DNA of 32,000 bases from Promethearchaeia archaeon (GCA_046497275.1 JAWOFX010000142.1:1-32000), one strand, 5' to 3'; positions 1-14,081 are shown, numbered from the stretch's first letter. A program made the numbers and translations. Notes: a model not told the origin generated them from the sequence alone.

Positions 1-417
1 TTATCTTCAGAATTCACACGAATAAAACTTCTCTATCATCTTTTACGAGCAAAATTTTACAAAAATCGTGGAAAATTATCATTAGCCCAAAAAATGCTAA
101 AGATGAGTCTAAAGAATATTGAAATTGACAAAATAGATGAGCAATATCATGAACTATTGTCTGATCTGCTTTTAGAATTATCTGAGTACTATATTCATGA
201 TCGGCAAGATACTAAGAAAGCATTTTATTTTTTGAATAAGACGAAAAACCTATTAAGTAGGAAAACTATTGATGGAATCAAAAGATCAATTCGTTGGAAT
301 CTTTTATCGAGCGATTTTTATTCTTTTCTTGTGGAAAAAAAAGATAAAGCACAATATTATATAAAAGAGACTCAAAAACTAAGAAATCAATTAAGAGTAA
401 TTGGAATTGAAGAATAG
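1..417 (+). CDS. C-terminal part of a helical (TPR-like) protein, 5'-truncated by the window
   Basis: Frame 1 is open from base 1 (LSSEFTRIKLLYHLLRAKFYKNRGKLSLAQKMLKM...), so the ATG at 94 is probably internal. The amphipathic helix pattern is TPR-like. Confidence 0.5.
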   Translation, partial: LSSEFTRIKLLYHLLRAKFYKNRGKLSLAQKMLKMSLKNIEIDKIDEQYHELLSDLLLELSEYYIHDRQDTKKAFYFLNKTKNLLSRKTIDGIKRSIRWNLLSSDFYSFLVEKKDKAQYYIKETQKLRNQLRVIGIEE

Positions 418-576
418 AGATAAATAGATAACGAAGTTCTCATGTCATTAATTTTAACTACTATAAATTTGATTTTATTTTCCCATTTTATTCCCTATAA
501 GAATTTTTAAAGAAAAATTAAAAATCAATTAATTTTTATCAATAATAATTCTTTTAAAACATTTATTTGAACGATT

Positions 577-1836
577 ATGCCAACTTCAAAAGATTTTATT
601 GAGATGGATTTAGAATATGGGGCTCATAATTATCATCCTATTCCAGTTGTAATTTCTAAAGCAAAAGGAGTTTGGGTATATGATCCGGAAGGGAAGAAAT
701 ATCTTGATTGTTTATCCGCTTATTCAAGTCAAAATACGGGCCATTGTCATCCGGAGATTATTAAAGCCTTAAAAGAACAAGCTGAAGTGGTAACTCTTAC
801 TTCTAGAGCATTCCATAATGATATGATGGGACCTTATTTAAAAAAATTATGTGAAATAGTCGGTCCTCATATTAATGATCCTGATAATTCTGGAATTATG
901 GCTTTACCTATGAATACTGGAACGGAGGCAGTTTCAACAGGTTTGAAAGTTACCAGAGCATGGGGATATATTAAAAAAAAGATACCTAAGAATAAAGCCC
1001 ATATTTTAGTATGCAACAATAATTTTCATGGAAGAACTATTACAATAGCAGGTTTTAGCTCTGATATTTCAGCTGTTAGATATTATGGAAATTTCGGTCC
1101 TTATACCCCTGGATTTACAATTATTCCATATGGAGATCCAGAAAAATTAGAAAATCATATAATTGAAAAAGGACCCGAAAATATCGCGGGGTTTCTATTT
1201 GAGCCTATTCAAGGAGAGGCGGGAGTTAGGGTTCCTCCAGAGGGGTATCTTAGAGCAACAAGAGAAATTTGTACAAAATATAATATATTAATGATTGCTG
1301 ACGAAATTCAAACTGGTTTAGGAAGAACGGGAGCTCTCTTTGCATGTGATCATGAGAATGTTAAACCCGATATGTTATTACTCGGAAAAGCCTTAGGGGG
1401 TGGAGTCTATCCCGTATCTGCTGTAGTATCAAATAAGGAAATTATAGGATCAGATGTTATAAAAAAAGGTACACACGGTTCAACATTTGGTGGAAATCCT
1501 TTAGCATGTGCTGTAGCTAGTAAATCATTAGATGTACATATTAATGAAAAATTACCAGAAAGAGCCAAAGAGTTAGGAAAGTATTTTATGAATGGTTTGA
1601 ATCAAATTGCCAAGAAAAATACAAAAATACCCGTTAAGGAAGTGAGGGGGAAAGGTCTTTTAACTGCAATAGAGTTTAAAGAGGATGCTAGAAAAATTGT
1701 TGAAGAACTCAAAGATAATGGAATTCTCGCAAAAGATACTCATTCCACCACTATAAGATTTGCTCCCCCCTTGGTAATTACTAAAGAAGAAATCGATTGG
1801 GCGCTGTCAATCATAGAAAAAGTGATTGTTGTCTAA
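577..1836 (+). CDS. rocD: Ornithine aminotransferase (class III PLP aminotransferase)
   Basis: YGAHNYHPIPVV N-terminus, FHGRT, FEPIQGEAG, ADEIQTGLGRTG, LLGKALGGG (PLP lysine), HGSTFGGNPLA, IRFAPPL. Confidence 0.93.
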   Translation: MPTSKDFIEMDLEYGAHNYHPIPVVISKAKGVWVYDPEGKKYLDCLSAYSSQNTGHCHPEIIKALKEQAEVVTLTSRAFHNDMMGPYLKKLCEIVGPHINDPDNSGIMALPMNTGTEAVSTGLKVTRAWGYIKKKIPKNKAHILVCNNNFHGRTITIAGFSSDISAVRYYGNFGPYTPGFTIIPYGDPEKLENHIIEKGPENIAGFLFEPIQGEAGVRVPPEGYLRATREICTKYNILMIADEIQTGLGRTGALFACDHENVKPDMLLLGKALGGGVYPVSAVVSNKEIIGSDVIKKGTHGSTFGGNPLACAVASKSLDVHINEKLPERAKELGKYFMNGLNQIAKKNTKIPVKEVRGKGLLTAIEFKEDARKIVEELKDNGILAKDTHSTTIRFAPPLVITKEEIDWALSIIEKVIVV

Positions 1837-1857
1837 AAAAATCCAAGATAATATTAT

Positions 1858-2778
1858 TTATTTTTCGTTGCTTTCTAAATAAATATGAGTACCAGCAGTA
1901 TTTTGTAATCCATCAATAATTTTATCAATTGAAGTGATTATGGCTTTTTTACCTCCAGCCTCTAAAAAATTAATCGCTGCTTGAATTTTAGGCCCCATAG
2001 TTCCAGAAGGAAAATGCCCTTCTTTCATATATTTTTTCGCTTTTTTTGTTGATAGTTTAGAAAGATATTGACAATCATCTTTCCCATAATTTAATGCTAC
2101 TTTTTCAACATCCGTGGCGATAAGTAATATATCCGCATTTATTTGTTCCCCTAATTTTGCACTTGCTAAGTCCTTATCAATAACAGCCTCCACTCCATGA
2201 AATGTATGTCCTTCTTTAACAACGGGTATACCCCCACCTCCACAAGCAATCACGATAAAATTTTCTTCCATTAATTTCTTTATTTCCTTCCATTGAATTA
2301 TACGTTTAGGGTCTGGTGAAGGAACAACTCTCCTCCATCCTTTTGCAGTTTTTATATAATTTTTTCTTTTCGTTCTATAAGAGGGACCAATTGGTTTAGT
2401 TGGATTTTGAAACGCTTTATCATTAGGATCTACCTCAACATACGTTAGTACGGTGAGGAAATATTTCTTAAGATCTAATCCTAAATTCATCAATTCTTCA
2501 TCCAGAGTACTTTCAATCAAGAACCCCAATTGACCTTGGGTCTCAGCAACTAGAATTTCAAGAGGCATTTTAGTTACCTCTTCAGTAGCTTCTTGTTGAA
2601 GAAGAAGAGAGCCAACTTGTGGTCCATTTCCATGAGTTATAACTAAGCTATAATCTTTAGAAAGTTTAGCAATTTGTTTAATTGGTTTTCTTAGATTTCT
2701 CTTCATTTCATCAGCTGAACCTTTTTCGCTTGGTTTTATTAACGCATTTCCCCCCAGTGCAACAATTAACGTTTTCAT
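1858..2778 (-). CDS. arcC: Carbamate kinase
   Basis: VALGGNAL, THGNGPQVG, NPTKPIGP, RRVVPSPDP, CGGGGIPV, AVIDKDL, GTMGPKIQAA. Confidence 0.95.
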   Translation of the reverse strand: MKTLIVALGGNALIKPSEKGSADEMKRNLRKPIKQIAKLSKDYSLVITHGNGPQVGSLLLQQEATEEVTKMPLEILVAETQGQLGFLIESTLDEELMNLGLDLKKYFLTVLTYVEVDPNDKAFQNPTKPIGPSYRTKRKNYIKTAKGWRRVVPSPDPKRIIQWKEIKKLMEENFIVIACGGGGIPVVKEGHTFHGVEAVIDKDLASAKLGEQINADILLIATDVEKVALNYGKDDCQYLSKLSTKKAKKYMKEGHFPSGTMGPKIQAAINFLEAGGKKAIITSIDKIIDGLQNTAGTHIYLESNEK

Positions 2779-2817
2779 GGAATCAACTCTAAAAAGAAGA
2801 AATAGTACAAATTATAT

Positions 2818-3759
2818 TTAAAATTTTTCCTTTAGAAAAAGCATTATTGCCTTCTGAACATGTAATCGATTTTCTGCCTGATCGAATACTATTGAATGAG
2901 GTCCATCTATAACTTTCGAAGTTTGTTCATATCCTCGCATAGCAGGAAGACAATTCATAAATATAACGTCAGATTTTGCAGTTTCAATGATTTCTTCATT
3001 AACTTGATAAGGCATGAAAGCATTCTTACGTTCATTTTCTTTCTCAACTGGAATGCCGTAGGACATCCAAGAATCAGTATAAATAACATCTGAGTTTAAT
3101 GCTGCTTTTTTAGCATCGTGTAAAACCCTTACTTTCGCACCTGTATTTTTAGAAATATCTGATATTTCTTTAAGAACAACCTCTTCTGGTATAAAATTCT
3201 TTCCCTCTGGGCATGCAACATCCATTTCCAATCCATATAATGCAGCAGCTCTCATTAGATCATATGTGACGTTGTTAAAACCATCACCAAAAAAAGAGAG
3301 TTTCAATCTATCGATTTTCTCTTTATTTTCTTTTATAGTAAAAAGATCGGAGAGTATTTGGCAAGGATGAGCAAAATCATCTAACATATTAATAACTGGA
3401 ATAGATGCATATTTTGCTAAATCCCAAATATCCTGCCGTTTATAAACTCTTGCTGCGAGGATATGAGCGTATCTAGAGACCACTCTAGCCATATCCTCAA
3501 TAGTTTCTTTCCTTCCTAAAGGAGAATCCTTAATAGAATAGAAAATTGCTTGTCCTCCTAATTCAAACATACCTGTTTCAAAAGATATTCTCGTTCTAAG
3601 GGAAGGCTTCTCGAAGAACATAAGCAAAGTTTGATTTTGTAAAGTATCTTTATATTTTTCGGGATTTTTTTTTATATCTGCTGCTTTTTCAATGATTTGA
3701 TTACATTCTTTTTTATTCAAATCAGTTATTTTTAATAAATTTCTTACCATTTTTTTCAC
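2818..3759 (-). CDS. argF: Ornithine carbamoyltransferase, catabolic/metamonad-like subtype (start GTG 3759 or ATG 3750)
   Basis: KPSLRTR, HPCQ, NNVTYDL, YTDSWMSY, FMNCLPA, ENRLH. Adjacent to carbamate kinase. Confidence 0.92.
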   Translation of the reverse strand: MKKMVRNLLKITDLNKKECNQIIEKAADIKKNPEKYKDTLQNQTLLMFFEKPSLRTRISFETGMFELGGQAIFYSIKDSPLGRKETIEDMARVVSRYAHILAARVYKRQDIWDLAKYASIPVINMLDDFAHPCQILSDLFTIKENKEKIDRLKLSFFGDGFNNVTYDLMRAAALYGLEMDVACPEGKNFIPEEVVLKEISDISKNTGAKVRVLHDAKKAALNSDVIYTDSWMSYGIPVEKENERKNAFMPYQVNEEIIETAKSDVIFMNCLPAMRGYEQTSKVIDGPHSIVFDQAENRLHVQKAIMLFLKEKF

Positions 3760-3807
3760 ATCTGATTTTGTAGAATATTAATAATACTATTTTTATTTTT
3801 ACTTTTT

Positions 3808-4974
3808 TCATTTTAGCTTTTCTTTTTGAGAAAAGTCTCGATCTAAAGAGAAATCTTCTAAAATGGTTCTTGATTTTGAATTAAGTTTTTTTCCACTTAT
3901 CATATCGGCTAATAATTCACCTAAACTTGGTCCTAACATAAATCCTTGACCACATAATCCTATTGCATTAATATATCCACGTGGTCCAGCCTTACCTATT
4001 ATTGGATTTCCATCTGGCGTCATCGGATAAAGCCCTCTCCATGTTCTCCTTATTTTCACATAATTTAAACGAGGAAGTAATCGTATTAAACGCTTTGAAA
4101 CCTGAGGAAGAAAGGAACTTGTTTCTCGTTTATCTGTTCCTAATATGGGAGGATCTGGGGTGATACAAAAAATAATTTGACCCTCTTTTGTTTGATAAAA
4201 GTAAGAATTCTGTGAATCGCCAAAAATTGGGTCTTTAATCGGTGTAAGATCCACAACCATAGTAGAGAAAAAAGGTTTTACTGGTTCAGTAATTCCTGCT
4301 TCATGGGATTCTGGAATAACTGGGACATCTAAGCCGACCATCCTTGCGATATATTTCGCAAAAGCTCCAGCCGCATTTATAATATAATCAGCTTTATAAG
4401 ATTGATGTTCTGATTTTACTTCAATTTTTTCATTATTATTGGTAATAATATCTATAACTTTTTCATTGAAATGAAATACAGCTCCTAATCTCACAGCTTC
4501 CCTATAAAACGCATTTAAAGCCAATAAGGGAGATGCATGACCATCTTCAGGGCTGTAGGTCCCTCCTATAACATAATTGTTATTAATTCCAGGAATTAGT
4601 TCCTTAATCTTTTCTCTATCAATATGATTAATAACAAGTCCATGTTTTTTTTGTTTTTCAACCATTTCTATAAGAAACTTATTTTCTTCCTCATCAGATG
4701 CAACAAATGTATATCCTCCTTGTTCCCAATCTATTTCATCACTATATTTTTTTTTCCAAGATGAAAATATTTCAATAGAACGTTGAGATGCCCAAATTTT
4801 GGATCTATGAGAGTGTGTTGCTCTTATTCCACCAATAGCATGTTTATTATCTCCTTGTGCGACAGATGGTAGGGCTTCAAGAACTAAGGTTTTAAGCCCA
4901 TTTTGAATACATCGTAATGCAGTAGGTACACCAATTGATCCTGCTCCAATTATTATAACATCATACTCATCCAA
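3808..4974 (-). CDS. FAD-dependent amine/amino-acid oxidoreductase (DAO family; proline dehydrogenase beta / sarcosine oxidase beta-like), TTG start
   Basis: IIGAGSIG dinucleotide fold, IINAAGA, WRGLYPMTPDGNPIIG, GLCGQGFMLGP. Adjacent to an alpha-like partner gene. Confidence 0.8.
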   Translation of the reverse strand: MDEYDVIIIGAGSIGVPTALRCIQNGLKTLVLEALPSVAQGDNKHAIGGIRATHSHRSKIWASQRSIEIFSSWKKKYSDEIDWEQGGYTFVASDEEENKFLIEMVEKQKKHGLVINHIDREKIKELIPGINNNYVIGGTYSPEDGHASPLLALNAFYREAVRLGAVFHFNEKVIDIITNNNEKIEVKSEHQSYKADYIINAAGAFAKYIARMVGLDVPVIPESHEAGITEPVKPFFSTMVVDLTPIKDPIFGDSQNSYFYQTKEGQIIFCITPDPPILGTDKRETSSFLPQVSKRLIRLLPRLNYVKIRRTWRGLYPMTPDGNPIIGKAGPRGYINAIGLCGQGFMLGPSLGELLADMISGKKLNSKSRTILEDFSLDRDFSQKEKLK

Positions 4975-4979
4975 GAATT

Positions 4980-7067
4980 TTAGCCTCCCTCCTCTGCATC
5001 TTCTTTAAATCCAGCAAAATATTTCATTGGAACTTCCATATTTATAGGACGAATTGTTCCCTCAATAATATCCTCCTTCGAAAAACCTTCATCAAGATAA
5101 AGTTTTTCAATAAGTGGTTTACATGTTTTTCCTCCACATGCCCCTAAACTAGCTCTTGTAAGGGCTTTCAATTCATTAATATCAGTGACTCCCAATTTGA
5201 TCCATTTTCTAATCTCCCCTGCACTCACACGTTCACAACGACACACAATAGCTTCATCAGGTAAATGTGGTTTATTATACACTTTAAGTGGTTTATGATG
5301 AACGTCTGGATATTTAGTTATACCAACTGCGCTTTTGGCAATATTTTTGGGAAGTTTAATGCTGACAAGTTGAGTATGGGGATATTTTTTGAGAATTTTT
5401 ACGTTATTAATTTTAAATTTCCCTAATTCACCTTTGTTTGACATTACTGTTATAATATCATTTTTATCTAGTTTTGAAGCACCCATTTCATAAGCAAAAG
5501 TTACTATTGGGTTTTGTTTATCTTTGCGATAATCAATTAAAGTAATCGCCAATCCTGGACAAACTGCGACACATTCACCGCAACCTAAACATTCTTTTTC
5601 ATCTTTAAAATAAGGTAATTCTGTAATTAAATTATCTTTAGTTGCGATCTGATTTTGAGGGCAAACTGTAGTACATGGATTACAAGGGATTTTCTGGTTA
5701 CAATGAAAAATTGGAAAGACACCAGTTTCTTTTTTGATTGTTTTTGTTTGAATAGGATCTGGAGGTCTTTTACCAATAATTTCAGCTTTTTTATACATTT
5801 CTTCAATATCTTCTTTGATTTCAAATCCCATATCTTTTAAAATTTTTAATCCTTCAATTTTTCCTCTGTATATTGCTGATGATGCTTCAGCTATTTCTTG
5901 AGCATCTCCGGCAATCCAAGCTTTTAATCCAAAATCTTTTGCTTTAAGATAAAATTCATTAATAGGAATTAACCCAACTGCGATTAATATTGTATCACAT
6001 TCAAAGGTTTTTTCACTCGTATCTATCGGGTTCCATTTCTCATCCAATCCTGCTATAGTAATAGATTCAACTTTATTATTGCCATTAGCAGATAAAATTG
6101 TATGACGGGTATAAATAGGGACTCCTAAATTTCTTAATTTATCTTCATGAACTTTATATCCACCACATTTGGGCATAGCTTCAATTAATCCAACTACTTC
6201 TATGCCTGCTTGTAATGCGTGATAACCCGCTATTAATCCAACATTACCTCCTCCAACAATAAAAATTTTTTTTGATGGTTTTACCAGATCACGATTGACC
6301 AACGTCTGGAATGCTCCGGCACCATAAACTCCTGGTAGGGTATCACCGGGAAAGATGAGCATTTTTTCACGTGCTCCAGTAGCTATTAATATATGATCTG
6401 ATTTGACTAGATAGTAAATCCCCCCATTTTTCAAAATTCCTACTTTTCCATCACTAAACACAGCAAGAGCAAGACTATTAATCCAGATATCAACATTATC
6501 ATAAGCATTTATTTTTTCATTGAGAATGCTGGCAATTTCAATCCCTCTTTTTCCTGCATATACATCCTCTTGTGAGCCAAAGAATTTATGTGTCTGAAGA
6601 ATTAATTTTCCCCCTAATTGTGATTTGTCATCAACGATTATTATTTTAATTCTCTGTTTAGCTAACACATTAGCCGCGGATAATCCAGCAGGTCCTCCAC
6701 CAACAATCAAAACCTGAGTTTCCAAAGTTTTGGGGTTTTTAAATTCCCCGAATTTATTAGATAATGGGATATTTGGTAATCCTTCGCAAGATTCTATATG
6801 CATTCCTTCTCGAATCTTTGTCATACAAGCTTTTTTTGGAACATCATCAACTAATATGTTACATTGAGCACATTGCCCGTTTGCGCAAAAAATACCCTGA
6901 GGTGAATTATCTTTAATATGATGTCCAAATATATGAATATCATTCATTATTAATGCTGAAGAAATTACCATATCTTCAAAAGCAGTATATTTCTTTCCGT
7001 TGAAATAAAATTTAATTGGGTTTCTTTTCGGTATATCCAATATTGGATGATCTTTAATATAATTCAT
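4980..7067 (-). CDS. Multidomain FAD/NAD(P) oxidoreductase with N-terminal [2Fe-2S], 2x[4Fe-4S] and C-terminal BFD-like [2Fe-2S] (proline dehydrogenase / sarcosine oxidase alpha-like fusion)
   Basis: FCANGQCAQC..C; VGGGPAG and VGGGNVG; ATGARE; CNQKIPCNPCTTVCP and CLGCGECVAVCP; CRCE...GACGGKTC. Confidence 0.8.
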   Translation of the reverse strand: MNYIKDHPILDIPKRNPIKFYFNGKKYTAFEDMVISSALIMNDIHIFGHHIKDNSPQGIFCANGQCAQCNILVDDVPKKACMTKIREGMHIESCEGLPNIPLSNKFGEFKNPKTLETQVLIVGGGPAGLSAANVLAKQRIKIIIVDDKSQLGGKLILQTHKFFGSQEDVYAGKRGIEIASILNEKINAYDNVDIWINSLALAVFSDGKVGILKNGGIYYLVKSDHILIATGAREKMLIFPGDTLPGVYGAGAFQTLVNRDLVKPSKKIFIVGGGNVGLIAGYHALQAGIEVVGLIEAMPKCGGYKVHEDKLRNLGVPIYTRHTILSANGNNKVESITIAGLDEKWNPIDTSEKTFECDTILIAVGLIPINEFYLKAKDFGLKAWIAGDAQEIAEASSAIYRGKIEGLKILKDMGFEIKEDIEEMYKKAEIIGKRPPDPIQTKTIKKETGVFPIFHCNQKIPCNPCTTVCPQNQIATKDNLITELPYFKDEKECLGCGECVAVCPGLAITLIDYRKDKQNPIVTFAYEMGASKLDKNDIITVMSNKGELGKFKINNVKILKKYPHTQLVSIKLPKNIAKSAVGITKYPDVHHKPLKVYNKPHLPDEAIVCRCERVSAGEIRKWIKLGVTDINELKALTRASLGACGGKTCKPLIEKLYLDEGFSKEDIIEGTIRPINMEVPMKYFAGFKEDAEEGG

Positions 7068-7103
7068 TTGAAATTCTACAGCTCATCTCTAAAAAGTAAT
7101 ATA

Positions 7104-9284
7104 TTATTGGTAAGGAGATATAATTTCTAAAACATCTTTAAAATCTATATTTAATTTTTTAACAAACTCTAAGGTAGGACATCCTTTATTATTCCATCCT
7201 CTTTCTTTATAGACTGCATCTTGTAAAAGACTATATTGCTTTTCACGATATTCTCGCAAAACTTTTATTTTTTCTTCAACAGATCTCCCCTCTTTTTCAA
7301 ATCCTAAATCTTTGAGTTGAGAATCATATCGTTCTTTACGACTGTTATATTCTAAAGGAGTAACTGGTCCCATTGACCTATACGGAAGATTTGAATCATG
7401 TTTTCGAAGTCCTTTCCCTTGACGAATATTAAAGATTCTTTGGAAATTATACACTCTCTCTGACATCCGAATAAGATCTTCTGATGTTGATTCTCTGCCA
7501 GTTACCGCTGAAAAATACTCTGCATACCATTCGATATGCTTTGGGATGGTTGCCCTTACCAAGGCTCCGGTATCTTCGTCCTTGATGGGATTATCCGCAT
7601 TATCTGGGGGGACAATATCATTCCACGGGAGCTTGCACAATCCGCACAATCCAAACCATGTACGCCAATAAGGAAAAAACTTAAGAGCAATTGCCTTATC
7701 CTCAAAAGTTGGGATAGTATTACGGACCATATCCTCAAAGATTAACCATGCCTCGTCATGTTGAGGTCCCTTATTAGTTAAACCATACCCTCCTTGCTGA
7801 GCTAATGATTCTTTAGTAACATATTCTGAAAATTCTAATCCTTTATGTTCCATTCCAATATCGTGTAAAAATTGAGGATCTGCATCATACTTCTCTGAAA
7901 AATATTTTTTCATATATTTTATTCCTTTTCCAACGATAACACCAAATCCGTCTCCTCTTGCCATCTGATGAATCAATTCTAAGGCAGATTCGGCATTTCC
8001 AAATTCTAGATTTAATCCCCCCGTTTTTTCTTCGTTTAGGATTCCATTTTCAAAACATTCCATAACAAATGCTATCCCTGTACCCACAGATATAGTATCT
8101 AATCCATAAGTATCGCAATAGAAATTTGCCTCAAGAACCCATTTAGGATCCCATACTCCCCAATTTGATCCACAACCCGCTATTGTTTCATATTCTGGTC
8201 CATCAACTATAACGTTTTGACCTTTAAATGGACCTGTACGAACCATATAGCCTTCGGAATAATGTGAACAACTCACTGTACAGCCTATCCAACATCCATC
8301 CGCCCCTTGTTTCCCAGAATATATTTTTTTCCATACATCACTCGCATATGGAAAATTTTCTTCTTCTGTTTCTTCATATGCTCCAAATCTAAAATTCTCT
8401 GTAGGTAATAAATCCGTTGCTCTCATGATTTCAGGAAGATGCCCCGTTCCAATTTCTCTCATTCGATTTTGATTTGGATCGTTTTTTACAATTTCTTTAT
8501 TATGTTTTTTTCCAAATTCACGCGCTCGTTCCAGATCATCTGGATTATTCGATTTTACACTCACATTAGGAGCTCGACAAACTATTGCTTTGATTTTTTT
8601 ATCAGCAAATACTGTACCTATGCCTCCTCTGCCAGCTTGCTTGCTAGAAGCCCATTCTCTAGAATTTGTATACCAAGAAAAATTCAACATCCCCCAATTG
8701 GAATGTTTAGCTGCTGGACCTGTACTGACTACCGATATTTGGTTTTTTTCTTTTTCACTTTTCGCATATTTTTTAGTTAACTGTTGCGTTAAAAGGTGTG
8801 AATATTCTGAAAGATTTTCTCCATCCTTAACCTCTTCAATTCTGATAATATGATCAATTCCATCGATATAAATTATAACCTCTTTATCTGCTTTCCCTTG
8901 AATTTCTAATGCGTCAAATCCAGAGAATTTTAAGTAGGGTCCAAAATAACCTCCTACATTACTATCAATAATTATGCCTGTTAGTGGTGAGATTGTAGTC
9001 ACTATTGACTTACCAGACCCTGGATAAAAAACACTTCCCCCTAAAGGTCCCGAGGATATACATATTTCATTATCAAGGCTATTCCACTTTACAATTTCGT
9101 CTTTTGGCAGACTGTTCCACATTAACCATAAATCAAATCCCTTCCCTCCGATGAAAACCTCTTTCATTTTTTCGGAGACAGGTTTTATTTCTATTTGGTT
9201 AGTTGAGAGATTAATATATAATGTTTGATTAACGTATCCCTTCTTGATTTCATTAAATGTATAACTTATGTTATTCTTAATCAA
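7104..9284 (-). CDS. aor: Aldehyde:ferredoxin oxidoreductase family (W/Mo-pterin), TTG start
   Basis: FIGGKG, GPLGG, SPLTG..DSNVGG, QAGRGGIG, KKIKAI, DGPEYET, DTYGLDTIS, KGLEFSEY, NKGPQHD, GLCKLPW. Confidence 0.88.
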   Translation of the reverse strand: MIKNNISYTFNEIKKGYVNQTLYINLSTNQIEIKPVSEKMKEVFIGGKGFDLWLMWNSLPKDEIVKWNSLDNEICISSGPLGGSVFYPGSGKSIVTTISPLTGIIIDSNVGGYFGPYLKFSGFDALEIQGKADKEVIIYIDGIDHIIRIEEVKDGENLSEYSHLLTQQLTKKYAKSEKEKNQISVVSTGPAAKHSNWGMLNFSWYTNSREWASSKQAGRGGIGTVFADKKIKAIVCRAPNVSVKSNNPDDLERAREFGKKHNKEIVKNDPNQNRMREIGTGHLPEIMRATDLLPTENFRFGAYEETEEENFPYASDVWKKIYSGKQGADGCWIGCTVSCSHYSEGYMVRTGPFKGQNVIVDGPEYETIAGCGSNWGVWDPKWVLEANFYCDTYGLDTISVGTGIAFVMECFENGILNEEKTGGLNLEFGNAESALELIHQMARGDGFGVIVGKGIKYMKKYFSEKYDADPQFLHDIGMEHKGLEFSEYVTKESLAQQGGYGLTNKGPQHDEAWLIFEDMVRNTIPTFEDKAIALKFFPYWRTWFGLCGLCKLPWNDIVPPDNADNPIKDEDTGALVRATIPKHIEWYAEYFSAVTGRESTSEDLIRMSERVYNFQRIFNIRQGKGLRKHDSNLPYRSMGPVTPLEYNSRKERYDSQLKDLGFEKEGRSVEEKIKVLREYREKQYSLLQDAVYKERGWNNKGCPTLEFVKKLNIDFKDVLEIISPYQ

Positions 9285-9363
9285 AATAAATCACATTTTT
9301 TAAAAAATACTTGCTAATTATCAATTCTAATATAATATTTTATTGGTTAAATAGAAAATGTAT

Positions 9364-10701
9364 CTATTTAAGATATTCTTTGATAAAGTCTTCTAAAATA
9401 TCTTCAATTGTTGGTTCTCTAGTAGATTCTATATCGTAATCAACCTTCAGAATAGGTTTATTATGATTGATAAGTTTTTTAAGATCTATAGGGCTAGCGT
9501 TTATTATAAAATCACATTTTGCTTTATTTAAAGTTTCTTCTAAGTCTGAGATCTGATCATCATTATATCCCATAGCGGGTACGACTTCTTCGATCTGTGG
9601 GAAATTTTCAAAAACATCTTTCATTGATCCACTTAAATATGGTTTTGGATCAATAATCTCAGCCCCCGCGTTTTTAGAGGCGATATAACCTGCTCCAATA
9701 GACATTTCCCCATGAGTCAATGTTGGTCCATCCTCTACTACAACCACTTTTTTCCCCTTTATATCATGAGTATTATCAAGACTTACTACAGAATCTGTAT
9801 ATATTCGTATGGCATTGGGATTTACTTCATCTAAATTTTTTTCTACAATCTTTACATCTGCTTGCTTTGCAGAATTCATTTTATTGATTATAAATACATC
9901 CGCGTCTCGAGCATTTACCTCACCTGGATGATAGCGTATTTCATGACCTGGTCTTAGAGGATCAACAACAATAAATAATAAATCTGGATCATAAAACGAA
10001 ATTTCGTTGTTTCCACCATCAAAGACAATAACATCAGCCTCTTTTTCTGCTTCACGAATTATTTTTTCATAATCAACTCCAGAATAAATAACCAAACCCT
10101 GTTGTAAATATGGTTCATATTCTTCTCTCTCCTCTATAGTGCAATCATATTTATCTAAATCTTCATATGTTTCAAATCTCATAACATTTTGTTGAATTAA
10201 ATCACCATAAGGCATTGGTTCCCTGATTGCCACAATTTTATATCCCTTGCTATTTAAATACCTATATACGGCTCTTGAAACTTGACTTTTTCCGCATCCC
10301 GTTCTAACAGCACAAACTGAAATAACGGGCTTTCTTGCTTTAATTTGTGTAAATCGTTCGGAAATAAGACGAAAGTTTGCTCCTGCAGAAAGTGCTCTTG
10401 AAGCAATATGCATAAGATTTACGTGAGAAATGTCAGAATATGCAAAAACAGCCTCATCTATTTGTTTCTTACTTATAAAATCTTCTAAATTATCCTCTGA
10501 AATCATTGGAATGCCTTTCGGATATAAATCACCCGCTAATTCAGATGGATAAAATCTCTGCGTTTCTTCTGTTGTTCCAACATTTTGCTCACCAGCAATA
10601 GTAAATGCTAAAACCTCGTAGTCTTCATTATTTTTGAAAATAGTATTAAACACATGAAAATCATACCCTAAAGCTCCGATGATTACAACTTTTTTTCTCA
10701 A
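9364..10701 (-). CDS. arcE: Arginine synthetase (ArcE) / cDPG-synthetase-like P-loop protein, TTG start with SD GAGGT
   Basis: DFH.FN, YPSELAGDLYPKGIP, FAYSD, AVRTGCGKSQ, PMPYGDL, CTIEEREEYEP, DGGNN, PGHE..YHPGE, VEDGPTLTHG, PAMGY. Clusters with OTC and carbamate kinase, and no arginine deiminase is in the cluster. Confidence 0.8.
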   Translation of the reverse strand: MRKKVVIIGALGYDFHVFNTIFKNNEDYEVLAFTIAGEQNVGTTEETQRFYPSELAGDLYPKGIPMISEDNLEDFISKKQIDEAVFAYSDISHVNLMHIASRALSAGANFRLISERFTQIKARKPVISVCAVRTGCGKSQVSRAVYRYLNSKGYKIVAIREPMPYGDLIQQNVMRFETYEDLDKYDCTIEEREEYEPYLQQGLVIYSGVDYEKIIREAEKEADVIVFDGGNNEISFYDPDLLFIVVDPLRPGHEIRYHPGEVNARDADVFIINKMNSAKQADVKIVEKNLDEVNPNAIRIYTDSVVSLDNTHDIKGKKVVVVEDGPTLTHGEMSIGAGYIASKNAGAEIIDPKPYLSGSMKDVFENFPQIEEVVPAMGYNDDQISDLEETLNKAKCDFIINASPIDLKKLINHNKPILKVDYDIESTREPTIEDILEDFIKEYLK

Positions 10702-10980
10702 TTAACATAACCTCTACTTAGTATTCTTAATTTGCTCATCATATTAAATTCATACTTTTTTATTAAAATTTTTAATTCTATGAGGGAAAGAATACCCATT
10801 TAATAGATTTAAAGATCAAAAACATTGAAATTTATCCGAGAAAAACAGATAGGGGAATTGATCGCGAATTAGGGTTCTAATTAGAGATTATATCACTCTT
10901 AAAATGATATTTACTATAAATTCTCCTTAGTAAATCATTCAATAAACTAAATAGATATATAGGAATAGATTTAAAAAAAA

Positions 10981-11184
10981 TTATTTTTTATACTTCGATC
11001 TTTTTGCTCCAATTGAGTCTGGTTGGCCACCATACTTCCCTTTTTCAATGCGTTTTTCATACAATTCTCGATAACGCATTCTTGGAGGCTTTTTTGGAGT
11101 TGAATTTACGCCCGTTTTTTCAATCTTTGGGGTTTGCATTTTGACTTTTCCTGCTTTTGTTAAACTTCCGTGTGAACCTGGCAT
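10981..11184 (-). CDS. rps30e: Ribosomal protein eS30 (standalone, no ubiquitin-like fusion)
   Basis: SHGSLTKAGKVKMQTPKI signature. SD GAGGT upstream. Confidence 0.93.
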   Translation of the reverse strand: MPGSHGSLTKAGKVKMQTPKIEKTGVNSTPKKPPRMRYRELYEKRIEKGKYGGQPDSIGAKRSKYKK

Positions 11185-11374
11185 ATGTTTAACCTCGTTT
11201 TCTTTTTTTTATTATTTAATTGTTTCTTAAATTTATTTCTAATATAAATAGCAATCTTAAACACTTAAATTTTAGGATTATGGTTTAACTAAAAACTGGA
11301 CTCCATTCATTTTAATTAAAATTGTAGGGATATTTAAATAATAATATCATAATGATTGAGAAGTTCATACCAAA

Positions 11375-11548
11375 ATGAAAAATGTAAAAGAAGAATCTAA
11401 GAAAAAAAATATTGAAAAAGTGATGTTTGGCGAAGATACAATGAATTGCTTCGCTTGCGGGGAAAAACTATCTTTAAAAGATACAGAAGCTGAGCGCTGT
11501 CCATATTGTGGCACAGAAATAAATAAAAAGGATATTAAAACACAATGA
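11375..11548 (+). CDS. 57-aa zinc-ribbon protein (absent from ORF track)
   Basis: MKNVKEESKKKNIEKVMFGEDTMNCFACGEKLSLKDTEAERCPYCGTEINKKDIKTQ*, with CxxC...CPxC. Confidence 0.7.
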   Translation: MKNVKEESKKKNIEKVMFGEDTMNCFACGEKLSLKDTEAERCPYCGTEINKKDIKTQ

Positions 11549-11635
11549 GCTTATTAATTAATATTTATAAGGAATAAAAATTTAATTCCAGCAATTTATT
11601 TATTTCTTAGAGAATAAAAAATTTTTGAAGCAAAA

Positions 11636-12145
11636 ATGAGTGTCGACTCCCCAGATACAGTAGGAAAAAGGTTAAGCTACGCATGCATTTTATCCTTGAT
11701 ATTATTAAGTATATTTTTAATTCTTTTGGTCTTCCAATTATTTTGGGCAATTTTATTCTTAATGTTCATAGCCCCACTTATAATGCTAGGACTAAATAGG
11801 TATTTTTTCCGCCCAGAAATTAAATGTCCTCGATGTAATGCCACCGTAAGTTCTTATAGTGATCGCTGCAGTCATTGTGGATTCCAATTAATAACTAAAT
11901 GTCCTAAATGTGGAGCTTCTATGAGATATAATGATGAAGTGTGTAATAATTGTGGTTATTCAATTAAAAAATTGATAATTCCTGAAAATGTTGAGCTTAA
12001 TTTTGAATATAAGGAAAATGATTCTCAAAAACCTCAAAAAAAAGTAATGGAGACTCGTTTCACCTTTTGTCCTCATTGCGGATCCAAACTTAATGAAAAT
12101 CAGCAGAATTTACGGTATTGTGAGTACTGTGGGAACAAATTGTAA
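11636..12145 (+). CDS. Membrane-anchored multi-zinc-ribbon protein
   Basis: Two N-terminal TM segments followed by six CxxC motifs (CPRC, CSHC, CPKC, CNNC, CPHC, CEYC). Confidence 0.8.
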   Translation: MSVDSPDTVGKRLSYACILSLILLSIFLILLVFQLFWAILFLMFIAPLIMLGLNRYFFRPEIKCPRCNATVSSYSDRCSHCGFQLITKCPKCGASMRYNDEVCNNCGYSIKKLIIPENVELNFEYKENDSQKPQKKVMETRFTFCPHCGSKLNENQQNLRYCEYCGNKL

Positions 12146-12164
12146 CAGAGAAGAACATAAAATA

Positions 12165-13364
12165 TTAATCATGACTCTTTAATCTCTCCTCAATAAAATT
12201 TAATTGCTGGATCATCCACGATTTAAATTTAATAAAATCTGAGATAGGAGGAATTGAATTATGATTTGACAAATCTTTCTGTTTTTCAGAAAGAACTGAA
12301 TTGATGTCTCTATTTTTTAAGGACTCTTGGCTTTTTTGTTTATATTTACTTTCATTATTTATAATTTTATCAATGAAGTTGCTTTGAACTCCGAGTTTGT
12401 GTAAAATTGTTTGGAAATCCGCACGTTCTTTTTCTGAGAGCTCTCCATTCTTATTAAGGGTATCTTTCCATTGAATAAGAAAGTCTTTAGGAAATCCTTC
12501 AGACCAGTGATGCCTTCGCAAGTAATTATAGAGTCTGCTGGGTGTAAATAATTCACTGAGTTCTAAATTACTCGGATTCACATTACTCGTCCGATATTCA
12601 TCGAGTTGGGTGATAAAGACTTGAAATAGATGTTTATTCTGTGATTGGATAATGTCAAATTCGTTGGTAAAATCGAGTGCTGTAGTATCTTCTGCCTTAG
12701 ATTGTAGACGGGAACCTTTTATGGAATCACCATCATTTGTATCTTCAGGAAGAATAATGTTATAATAGTTCTCGGTGAATTCAATCACCCGTTCTTGTTC
12801 TTGTAGAGTATATGCACTTGCGATCTCCTCAATATTGAGAGATTCGGGATTTGAATTCATAGCAATATAAATCTTGTTGGCAGTATTTTTAATCTCTTGA
12901 AGAGCGTCTCTGAGCATACTATAATTCTTTGCGAGTGAAAGGATCATCCTTTCCATTGTGAGATCTACATTCTCGAAATCATAATTAAGAAATTTAGTAG
13001 ATTTTTTATTATAAAAGACGAAATTACTATGGGTGGATTCGATAAGATCAGTTGCATTTTGAGTAATGTTAAGGATTGCATGAGCGTTCTCAAGATCTAG
13101 AAGCTGTTTCGCCTTCTTTTTATTAAGATTATAGATGAGGTGATAATTTGGAGTGTGAGAATAGGACTCTGCGTCGCTCCTAATCATCTCTCGGATATTA
13201 TAAAGAGCAGTTGCTTCCAAGTCTATAAGGTTGTAGCCGACGGTAAATATCTCTAAGGTTCTTAGATGTTTAAGATCTACATGCGGAAATATTACAATAT
13301 TTTTTTGTTTAAAAAAGATCAAATGCAAGAACTCGGGTGTGAGAAAATCATACTCTGTGTCCAT
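12165..13364 (-). CDS. Hypothetical protein
   Basis: 399-aa ORF with a T-rich TATA element 19 nt upstream. No motif recognised. Confidence 0.75.
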   Translation of the reverse strand: MDTEYDFLTPEFLHLIFFKQKNIVIFPHVDLKHLRTLEIFTVGYNLIDLEATALYNIREMIRSDAESYSHTPNYHLIYNLNKKKAKQLLDLENAHAILNITQNATDLIESTHSNFVFYNKKSTKFLNYDFENVDLTMERMILSLAKNYSMLRDALQEIKNTANKIYIAMNSNPESLNIEEIASAYTLQEQERVIEFTENYYNIILPEDTNDGDSIKGSRLQSKAEDTTALDFTNEFDIIQSQNKHLFQVFITQLDEYRTSNVNPSNLELSELFTPSRLYNYLRRHHWSEGFPKDFLIQWKDTLNKNGELSEKERADFQTILHKLGVQSNFIDKIINNESKYKQKSQESLKNRDINSVLSEKQKDLSNHNSIPPISDFIKFKSWMIQQLNFIEERLKSHD

Positions 13365-13383
13365 ACTTGATAAAGAGGATAGG

Positions 13384-13400
13384 TATTTAAAAAGAAAAAA
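13384..13400 (-). promoter_or_regulatory. T-rich/TATA element, spacing variant TTTTTTCTTTTTAAATA
   Basis: 19 nt upstream of ATG 13364 in a divergent intergenic region. Confidence 0.55.
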
Positions 13401-13431
13401 GTAAGAGAAGAATCATAAAAAAACTCTTCAC

Positions 13432-13446
13432 CTTTTTCTTTATATA
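13432..13446 (+). promoter_or_regulatory. T-rich/TATA element CTTTTTCTTTATATA (1 mismatch)
   Basis: 23 nt upstream of a small ORF at 13470. Confidence 0.5.
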
Positions 13447-13554
13447 TCTAAAAATTACAAAATAGTGCTATGATTTCAAAACAAACTTATATATATAAAA
13501 ATCAAGTTCTTACTAACGTTGTCTTTATTTCATTTTTATAGTTAAATTTATAAA

Positions 13555-13569
13555 TTTTTTCTTTATATA
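13555..13569 (+). promoter_or_regulatory. T-rich/TATA element TTTTTTCTTTATATA (exact)
   Basis: 68 nt upstream of ATG 13638. Confidence 0.65.
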
Positions 13570-13637
13570 ATTCGAATCTCTTACTTATGATATCAAGATT
13601 CCTCTTGTGTAATGAGGGAATGGAGAAGTTTTGAGAA

Positions 13638-13934
13638 ATGAAGTGTGAATATTGCAAGAAAATTTTTCCCAGATCGAGCAAAAGGAGAGTGCGACATAGA
13701 AATACGCAAAGTTCTAATGGATCACTCAATTTTTGCTCGAAGAAATGCTATGAACAATGGCTTCAAGAGATCAAACACACCAATCTCCATTATTACGTAG
13801 TATGGAAAGTAATTGCTTTTTTTGGAAATTTTAAGTTTCGCAAACAGCTCATCCAAAGCGAAGGTATCATACCCGATCTTGGGCTCCCTAAAGATAATTC
13901 TCACTTTGCGCTTAACCTACAGGATGAATTTTAA
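13638..13934 (+). CDS. TRASH/MYM-type zinc-finger protein
   Basis: MKCEYCKK...NFCSKKC (CxxC...FCSxxC). Confidence 0.65.
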   Translation: MKCEYCKKIFPRSSKRRVRHRNTQSSNGSLNFCSKKCYEQWLQEIKHTNLHYYVVWKVIAFFGNFKFRKQLIQSEGIIPDLGLPKDNSHFALNLQDEF

Positions 13935-14081
13935 ATAGTCTCTATGATGATCCCATATTTTGGGCGAATGAGAGATATAAGAAGAATATGTGGAAAAATA
14001 TCAACGAGGGAGAATTCATCATTGTGTACCTTAATCAAGGAGAATAATTCATAAGGTAAAAATAAAAGAAGAATAAAATTA

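Follow-up and report, generated by a model that had tools for sequence, protein, structure and literature searches.

A candidate arginine synthetase gene cluster with an inserted proline-dehydrogenase-type enzyme and an AOR-family oxidoreductase in a Loki-type Asgard archaeon

Known arginine pathways and the Loki-type cluster

Arginine synthetase (ArcE) was first described in 2024. Syntrophic fermentation of amino acids is the presumed way of life of Asgard archaea, which among prokaryotes are the closest relatives of eukaryotes. Here, we analyze a gene cluster at positions 577 to 10701 of a 32,000-nucleotide stretch of DNA from a Promethearchaeia archaeon (GCA_046497275.1, JAWOFX010000142.1:1-32000; the whole stretch is hereafter called the window). 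In this cluster, an arcE-like gene is accompanied by genes for ornithine carbamoyltransferase (OTC), carbamate kinase (CK), and ornithine aminotransferase (OAT), by a flavoprotein pair resembling L-proline dehydrogenase (PDH), and by a member of the aldehyde:ferredoxin oxidoreductase (AOR) family. The arginine-to-ornithine part with its two ATP is already known, Lokiarchaeota included, as is the link to OAT from Thermococcus kodakarensis (PMC11032458). What is new is the conserved, co-inherited insert, in which a fused proline-dehydrogenase-type enzyme is joined by an AOR.

The closest described system is the arginine synthetase pathway of T. kodakarensis, which comprises the characterized ArcE (TK2200), OTC (TK0871), CK (TK2158), and an ornithine aminotransferase (TK2101) (PMC11032458). 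The same four families are found in the window, likewise with no arginine deiminase (ADI), and the ArcE-like protein shares with its T. kodakarensis counterpart the P loop, an LpxK-like fold, and a remote kinship to cyclic 2,3-diphosphoglycerate (cDPG) synthetase (cDPGS). However, the four genes form one cluster in the Loki-type archaeon and are dispersed in T. kodakarensis; the Loki OTC is of a Giardia-like catabolic type; a PDH-like pair and an AOR gene are inserted; and T. kodakarensis channels its ornithine into proline. The second relevant system is the arginine deiminase (arcABC) pathway, in which OTC and CK likewise yield ornithine and one ATP and the genes are likewise clustered. The Loki cluster differs in having no ArcA; the first step would be taken by an unrelated, ATP-forming enzyme, so that two ATP per arginine are expected.

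Open reading frames (ORFs) were called in the window and scanned against Pfam and NCBIfam families, and all seven genes were found where a preliminary description of the stretch had placed them. Read along the minus strand, the order is ArcE-like protein, AOR, fused Fe-S flavoprotein, FAD protein of the D-amino acid oxidase (DAO) family, OTC, and CK, with spacers of 5 to 79 bp among these six genes. The OAT gene lies on the plus strand, convergent with that of CK. The features are as follows.

9364..10701, minus strand: ArcE-like candidate arginine synthetase (ATP-forming arginine deiminase), 445 aa, TTG start; no Pfam or NCBIfam match
7104..9284, minus strand: AOR-family tungsto/molybdopterin oxidoreductase, 726 aa ("AOR-726" clade); AFOR_N, AFOR_C
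4980..7067, minus strand: fused alpha, gamma, and delta subunits, L-proline-dehydrogenase type, 695 aa; Fer2_4, Pyr_redox_2, two [4Fe-4S], BFD
3808..4974, minus strand: DAO-family FAD beta subunit, predicted catalytic amine/imino-acid dehydrogenase; PF01266, 211 bits
2818..3759, minus strand: catabolic-type ornithine carbamoyltransferase; TIGR00658, NF001986
1858..2778, minus strand: carbamate kinase; TIGR00746
577..1836, plus strand: ornithine--oxo-acid (delta) aminotransferase; TIGR01885

The closest relatives of all cluster proteins are found in Promethearchaeota/Lokiarchaeota assemblies. This supports the assignment of the host to Promethearchaeota/Lokiarchaeia, i.e., to a Loki-type Asgard archaeon, and bears out the probable Asgard origin proposed at the outset. 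The genome carrying the cluster consists of 188 contigs, with a completeness of 98.9%.

Conservation was surveyed in 400 Asgard genomes, and 40 arcE loci were fetched for gene order. ArcE is present in 296 of the 400 genomes. The order arcE-AOR-FeSFAD-DAO-OTC-CK-OAT (FeSFAD denoting the fused flavoprotein) exists in the window's family and in genus g15 of a second family (genera and families are given by our working labels), and the AOR/FeSFAD/DAO insert lies between arcE and the OTC gene in genera g1, g2, g8, g12, g13, and g15. Comparison of coordinate tables placed arcE and the AOR gene on one contig, at most 5 kb apart, in 57 genomes; the insert thus occurs in no fewer than 57 Loki-type genomes. 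Because the seven-gene order recurs in other genomes, it is not a matter of chance. The contiguous neighborhood seen earlier in the one sequence is confirmed, and it is conserved. ArcE, OAT, and the flavoprotein pair are co-present or co-absent by genus. A short form without the insert, arcE-OTC-CK, occurs in three complete genomes (4.36, 6.03, and 4.32 Mb), genus g9, and family f7, with OAT next wherever the contig continues; OAT adjoins CK in the long and the short forms alike. The short form arcE-OTC-CK-OAT is the commoner layout across the class, complete Loki genomes included, and in other Asgard classes (ArcE about 53% identical) arcE is found without these partners.

In sister genomes, the units of the cluster are often separated by unrelated genes, but the genes for the fused flavoprotein and the DAO protein never are. 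Insertions judged to be unrelated encode an amidohydrolase, a cation efflux protein, a GTPase, a histidine kinase, TPR proteins, an Na/H exchanger, ThiC, and a GIY-YIG protein. In many assemblies, the contig ends a few hundred bases from arcE (e.g., G252:C159, G266:C288, G236:C28, G222:C138, and G212:C21), which suggests that a repeat or a variable stretch adjoining the cluster breaks the assemblies. In g2 and g15 (loci L016, L017, and L024), genes for an isocitrate/isopropylmalate dehydrogenase and for CoA-ligase/citrate-synthase-domain proteins precede arcE, and the same dehydrogenase family is found near a stand-alone AOR gene in family f16 (L060 to L062). These neighbors may supply 2-oxoglutarate for OAT or be there by chance.

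Predicted steps from arginine to glutamate semialdehyde

ArcE homologs had been annotated as hypothetical proteins or GTPases before the characterization of TK2200; they were reported in many groups, Lokiarchaeota among them, sometimes near arcB and arcC, and a few eukaryotic homologs were mentioned (PMC11032458). The TK2200 family is only remotely similar to cDPGS, and its predicted fold resembles that of LpxK (4EHY) (PMC11032458). The 445-aa protein of the window shows a similar picture. Its relatives at 74 to 79% identity are Loki/Promethearchaeota proteins named "GTPase" or, by the NCBI pipeline, "cyclic 2,3-DPG synthase," and a Walker A motif (GCGKS) is found at residues 135 to 139. The AlphaFold2 model (pLDDT, 93.5) was searched with Foldseek, in which the best fold was the Methanothermus fervidus cDPGS at 17% identity, followed by LpxK 4EHY (E value, 2e-8; target-normalized TM-score, 0.65). 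A phmmer comparison with the M. fervidus cDPGS gave an E value of 9e-4 over 123 residues only. cDPG itself is known from hyperthermophilic methanogens only (PMC10690619).

In a library-wide search, the protein matched 408 clusters at E < 1e-30, with full-length relatives 32 to 54% identical to it. A scan of the genome collection with a profile built from seven non-Loki representatives returned named relatives in Desulfurococcales, Bathyarchaeia, Virgibacillus, Bacillus, Sporosarcina, Caldisericia, and Calditrichaeota, several of them among the groups listed in PMC11032458. Family members also exist in Lokiarchaeota and Thermoproteota; across these two groups, Desulfurococcales, Virgibacillus, Bacillus, and Caldisericia, identity to the window's protein is 40 to 54%. 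None of the 80 named loci returned by the profile scan is from Thermococcales. A full-length member of the family, 46% identical to the window's protein, is encoded by the ichthyosporean Creolimax fragrantissima (EukProt protein P0132).

Because the "GTPase" naming, the presence in Lokiarchaeota, the remote link to cDPGS, and the match to an LpxK-like fold all agree with PMC11032458, we assign the protein to the ArcE (TK2200) family and not to the true cDPG synthetases, an assignment that these sequence and fold comparisons support. The preliminary description, which had recognized the protein as ArcE-like, had also named the cDPG synthetases as the neighboring family. That relation is remote, and the characterized ArcE is TK2200. 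The evidence for orthology to TK2200 is at the family level.

The OTC scored 363 bits on TIGR00658 (cut-off, 281) and 365 bits on NF001986 (cut-off, 306) and fell below the cut-off of the putrescine carbamoyltransferase model (272 versus 500 bits). In its sequence, the motifs SLRTR, SYG, and NCLP replace the usual STRTR, SMG, and HCLP; these variants are common to the Giardia-type clade. Its best PDB match is the Giardia OTC (3GRF), ahead of the Pyrococcus OTC. This likeness agrees with an older tree, in which the Lokiarchaeum OTC grouped with the metamonad clade; no ADI was known for Lokiarchaeum (PMC5052871). CK, which is present in a single copy in the genome, scored 374.5 bits on TIGR00746 (cut-off, 358.25), and OAT scored 532 bits on TIGR01885 (cut-off, 378). 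OTC, CK, and OAT thus all exceed NCBI curated equivalog cut-offs, and these three neighbors of the arcE-like gene had been read correctly.

The absence of an ADI gene, first remarked for the cluster, extends to the genome: no ADI (PF02274) was found in the cluster or in the whole 98.9%-complete genome. An arcE-like gene clustered with OTC and CK genes while arcA is absent is the replacement pattern expected of ArcE. Argininosuccinate synthetase (ArgG) is present in the genome, and a second transcarbamylase, on contig C79, scores as an N-acetylornithine carbamoyltransferase; arginine synthesis therefore has its own enzymes. Because of these, of the catabolic type of the OTC, and of the reasoning in PMC11032458, ArcE is probably catabolic, and two ATP would be formed per arginine together with CK. 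The two substrate-level phosphorylations proposed earlier thus follow, by analogy, from PMC11032458.

Homology to characterized enzymes makes the first four steps highly probable. ArcE would convert arginine, ADP, and Pi to citrulline, ATP, and NH3; the catabolic OTC would convert citrulline and Pi to ornithine and carbamoyl phosphate; CK would form ATP, CO2, and NH3 from carbamoyl phosphate and ADP; and OAT would convert ornithine and 2-oxoglutarate to glutamate and glutamate 5-semialdehyde, the latter in equilibrium with 1-pyrroline-5-carboxylate (P5C).

The inserted flavoprotein pair and AOR-family oxidoreductase

The dye-linked L-proline dehydrogenases of Thermococcales (PDH1, 1Y56) combine a DAO-type beta subunit with a Pyr_redox_2-type alpha subunit, and the Thermococcus profundus enzyme is of a four-subunit, alpha-beta-gamma-delta type (cited in PMC4575208). 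The pair in the window has this make-up. The DAO protein has its best PDB match in 1Y56_B, the beta subunit of the Pyrococcus horikoshii L-proline dehydrogenase (4e-45), with a dimethylglycine dehydrogenase next (7e-25), and the best match of the 695-aa protein is 1Y56_A (PH1363, the alpha subunit of PDH1). Other Asgard families encode the same system in four separate genes, of about 484, 170, 100, and 386 aa. Because residues 4 to 416, 447 to 585, and 607 to 685 of the 695-aa protein align in order to the separate alpha (484 aa), gamma (170 aa), and delta (98 aa) genes, we regard it as an alpha-gamma-delta fusion. It keeps the N-terminal 2Fe-2S site, the FAD and NAD(P) glycine motifs, two [4Fe-4S] sites, and a BFD-type 2Fe-2S site, so that, with the DAO-type beta subunit, all parts of an archaeal heteromeric L-proline dehydrogenase are present. 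The DAO gene directly follows the fused subunit in 31 of the 31 loci examined. At one locus (G163:C2, 9009-12272; L086), the genome search gave a single 1087-aa frame across both genes, which ORF calling splits into two genes of 694 and 391 aa; this locus is flanked by genes for beta-lactamase/Pab87-type peptidases and MFS transporters.

Compared with the Thermococcales enzymes, the Loki pair differs in the fusion of three subunits and in its low identity to the solved enzyme, and its substrate is a prediction. The beta subunit shares only about 30% identity with any characterized enzyme, and the NCBIfam scores of the pair are all far below the cut-offs; the former weighs against proline as the substrate, as does the fact that heteromers of the DAO family include an opine dehydrogenase with arginine as a product, D-hydroxyproline dehydrogenase, and HCN synthase (PMC4575208). 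The complex may thus act on another N-substituted amino acid: an opine (octopine or nopaline), with release of arginine for ArcE; a sarcosine-type compound, with formaldehyde for the AOR; or D-proline or hydroxyproline. The family's opine dehydrogenase, whose products are L-arginine and a 2-oxo acid, and the low NCBIfam scores speak for this alternative. Likewise, a PutA-type Pro_dh gene lies less than 3 kb from the pair in three other Asgard families, in three different arrangements; a second L-proline dehydrogenase would be redundant there, and two such enzymes side by side call for an explanation. The same neighbor, however, points to proline metabolism, and no PutA-type or other proline dehydrogenase was found in the window's genome. 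For both chains, the nearest solved relative is the P. horikoshii L-proline dehydrogenase, and matches on Agrobacterium-type plasmids are weaker (best, 1e-28) than those to haloarchaeal homologs (7e-45). The opine dehydrogenase, D-hydroxyproline dehydrogenase, and HCN synthase resemble the Loki complex in their heteromeric DAO architecture and in their 2Fe-2S and Pyr_redox_2 subunits, but they are bacterial three-subunit enzymes, more distant in sequence, whose products are not aldehydes, and an opine substrate leaves the AOR unexplained. We consider a different substrate distinctly unlikely. Proline itself, suggested by the gene context, is a plausible assignment toward which we remain slightly reserved. 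A gene near the pair in family f16 that was taken for a prolyl-tRNA synthetase encodes a glycyl-tRNA synthetase.

The AOR-family protein matches AFOR_N and AFOR_C and shares with the Pyrococcus furiosus AOR and FOR (1aor and 1b25) the catalytic Glu and His and the pterin motif; GPEYE and DTYGLD are also kept. Its best PDB match is 1aor (1e-55), at 192 bits over a partial length, followed by 1b25 (2e-46). It is about 120 aa longer than characterized members of the family, and the first three cysteines of its [4Fe-4S] site, at residues 331 to 339, are spaced CxxxCxxxC instead of the CxxCxxxC of the P. furiosus AOR. It falls below every NCBIfam equivalog cut-off (NF007354, 109 versus 868 bits; GAPOR, 42 versus 1300 bits) and fits no characterized subfamily (AOR, FOR, GAPOR, WOR5, or the Escherichia coli YdhV type).

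The distribution of this AOR-726 clade weighs against a dedicated role in the cluster. Full-length orthologs exist in 230 of the 400 Asgard genomes, and stand-alone forms, about 70% identical, are found in unrelated contexts in many genomes lacking ArcE, OAT, and the PDH-like pair. Genera g6 and g11 and families f31 to f33 (OAT in 0/89 and FeSFAD in 1/89) have AOR-726 without these partners. Almost every genome has one copy, in the cluster or outside it, which suggests one shared, more general activity. The protein may accordingly be a general Asgard aldehyde:ferredoxin oxidoreductase whose position in the cluster is due to co-regulation with amino-acid fermentation or to its history, with glutamate semialdehyde handled by an aldehyde dehydrogenase (ALDH), by ProC, or not at all. 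The mutual exclusion of in-cluster and stand-alone forms within a genome favors this explanation, as do the twelve AOR paralogs of the window's genome, of which the cluster AOR is one; Asgard AORs are multi-copy and mostly unclassified (PMC11291895).

The phylogeny of the AOR argues in the other direction. In a quick tree of 40 orthologs, including 16 in-cluster AORs, a supported group unites 11 of these 16 (from g1, g12, and g13) and a single stand-alone sequence (G163); this group was named after the tree was seen. In-cluster AORs from g2, g8, and g15 fall outside it, on separate branches. Another group, with full support, consists of nine stand-alone AORs from the same family. The window's own genus has members in both groups, and monophyly of its AORs was rejected (approximately unbiased test, p-AU 6e-5). 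Thus, the AOR was inherited with the cluster, across genus boundaries, and not with the genome. Furthermore, in three genomes of genus g35 a different AOR (31% identical) stands beside a split PDH-like operon, which is an independent second association of an AOR with a PDH-like system. These two observations, together with the lack of the candidate ALDH in most cluster-bearing genomes (see below), leave a general AOR a somewhat unlikely explanation of the insert. A ProC gene three genes from the stand-alone AOR in g7, g9, and g11 was given no weight, as the strands alternate and mevalonate-pathway kinases are included.

Matches at 99% identity or more exist for all seven genes among the contigs of four metatranscriptome libraries, which stem from two salt-lake studies; single contigs span the junctions of AOR with the flavoprotein and of DAO with OTC, as well as the convergent ends of OAT and CK. 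Such contigs indicate presence, not one transcript, and DNA carryover is possible. The contigs listed leave positions of about 9250 to 9410 (the arcE/AOR spacer), 1 to 450, and most of 12151 to 13500 uncovered, from which we draw no conclusion.

Upstream of arcE, a 67-aa ORF (10981-11184, minus strand) resembles ribosomal protein eS30 as read from its translation alone; RNA-library contigs cover this stretch, too. A 57-aa ORF (11375-11548, plus strand) with two CxxC pairs is zinc ribbon-like and lies between the eS30-like gene and a gene for a 169-aa double zinc-ribbon protein (11636-12145). No Rfam families were found in positions 1 to 14000 of the window.

Proposed pathway and its significance

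The fate of glutamate semialdehyde is the point at which the possible pathways diverge. The genome has three Aldedh genes, one of them ProA, and no P5C dehydrogenase equivalog; the two other Aldedh proteins score 295 and 177 bits on NF002852 (cut-off, 648). In two sister genomes, an NAD-type ALDH gene, 81% identical to the copy on contig C112 of the window's genome, is inserted between the CK and OTC genes, which suggests that aldehyde oxidation belongs to the pathway. Because only 15 of the 135 family genomes carry this ALDH, it is not a general solution, and some genomes without the cluster have it as well. Its scarcity leaves the AOR as the best candidate oxidizer. Five sister loci have a flavodoxin gene between arcE and the AOR gene, a possible electron acceptor.

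Taken as a whole, the cluster may be an arginine synthetase pathway extended at the glutamate-semialdehyde/P5C node, a proposal that we hold to be evenly balanced. In this scheme, the DAO protein and its fused Fe-S/flavin partner would form an archaeal-type L-proline dehydrogenase that feeds proline into the P5C pool, and the AOR would oxidize the open-chain semialdehyde to glutamate and pass the electrons to ferredoxin or, in several sister genomes, perhaps to the flavodoxin encoded beside it. The net yield per arginine would be two ATP by substrate-level phosphorylation and low-potential reductant. For the AOR step, to which the gene context points, we judge the case tentative and not quite balanced. 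The most specific form of the proposal, in which the AOR is a glutamate-5-semialdehyde:ferredoxin/flavodoxin oxidoreductase and, with the fused proline dehydrogenase, would lead from ornithine and proline to glutamate independently of pyridine nucleotides, is doubtful.

The discoverers of the P. furiosus FOR reportedly suggested a role for it in basic amino-acid catabolism. To our knowledge, no AOR oxidizes glutamate semialdehyde, and ferredoxin reduction through this oxidation has no biochemical precedent. A literature search returned no paper in which glutamate semialdehyde or proline dehydrogenase is tied to an AOR. The nearest biochemical precedent is provided by the FOR of P. furiosus, which is thought to act on C4 to C6 semialdehydes and was crystallized with bound glutarate (PMC12096430).

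Further observations count against the extended pathway. ProC is present in the genome, and in T. kodakarensis the ArcE/OTC/OrnAT route feeds proline synthesis, as was shown genetically (PMC11032458). In the cultured-type complete genomes G135, G138, and G143, the arcE-OTC-CK-OAT unit, the PDH pair, and the AOR gene lie far apart. Arginine may accordingly be converted to proline as in T. kodakarensis, with OAT making P5C and ProC reducing it to proline, for biosynthesis or as an electron sink; the AOR and the flavoprotein pair would then be neighbors without a role in arginine carbon flow. The genetic precedent, the presence of ProC, and the predominance of the insert-free short form are what this route explains best. 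However, ProA and a neighboring kinase already make proline from glutamate, so that OAT is not needed for it; an enzyme of a proline-oxidizing type in the cluster opposes net proline synthesis; and the insert (with an ALDH in two genomes) is kept in the cluster across seven genera. We consider the conversion of arginine to proline unlikely.

The preliminary description had claimed a complete module from arginine and proline to glutamate. Its first part, from arginine through ornithine to glutamate semialdehyde, is well supported. Proline entry, the glutamate step, and ferredoxin reduction are in doubt: the T. kodakarensis route ends in proline, the AOR clade is common without the partners, and the relatives of the flavoprotein pair act on various substrates. 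On gene context alone, the insert is read most coherently as an extension to glutamate that reduces ferredoxin, and the independent spread of the AOR clade weakens this reading.

The cluster offers a concrete scheme for how arginine and proline may supply Asgard archaea with energy and reductant. If the extended pathway is true, arginine fermentation would give two ATP as well as low-potential electrons for hydrogen or formate production, and the electrons of the aldehyde step might help to drive the unfavorable oxidation of proline via the Fe-S subunit with its NAD(P) site. It would also provide a physiological substrate for one of the many unassigned Asgard AORs and a ferredoxin-linked replacement for P5C dehydrogenase. 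Finally, the likeness of the OTC to catabolic enzymes of the Giardia type is relevant to where the eukaryotic arginine pathway came from (PMC5052871).

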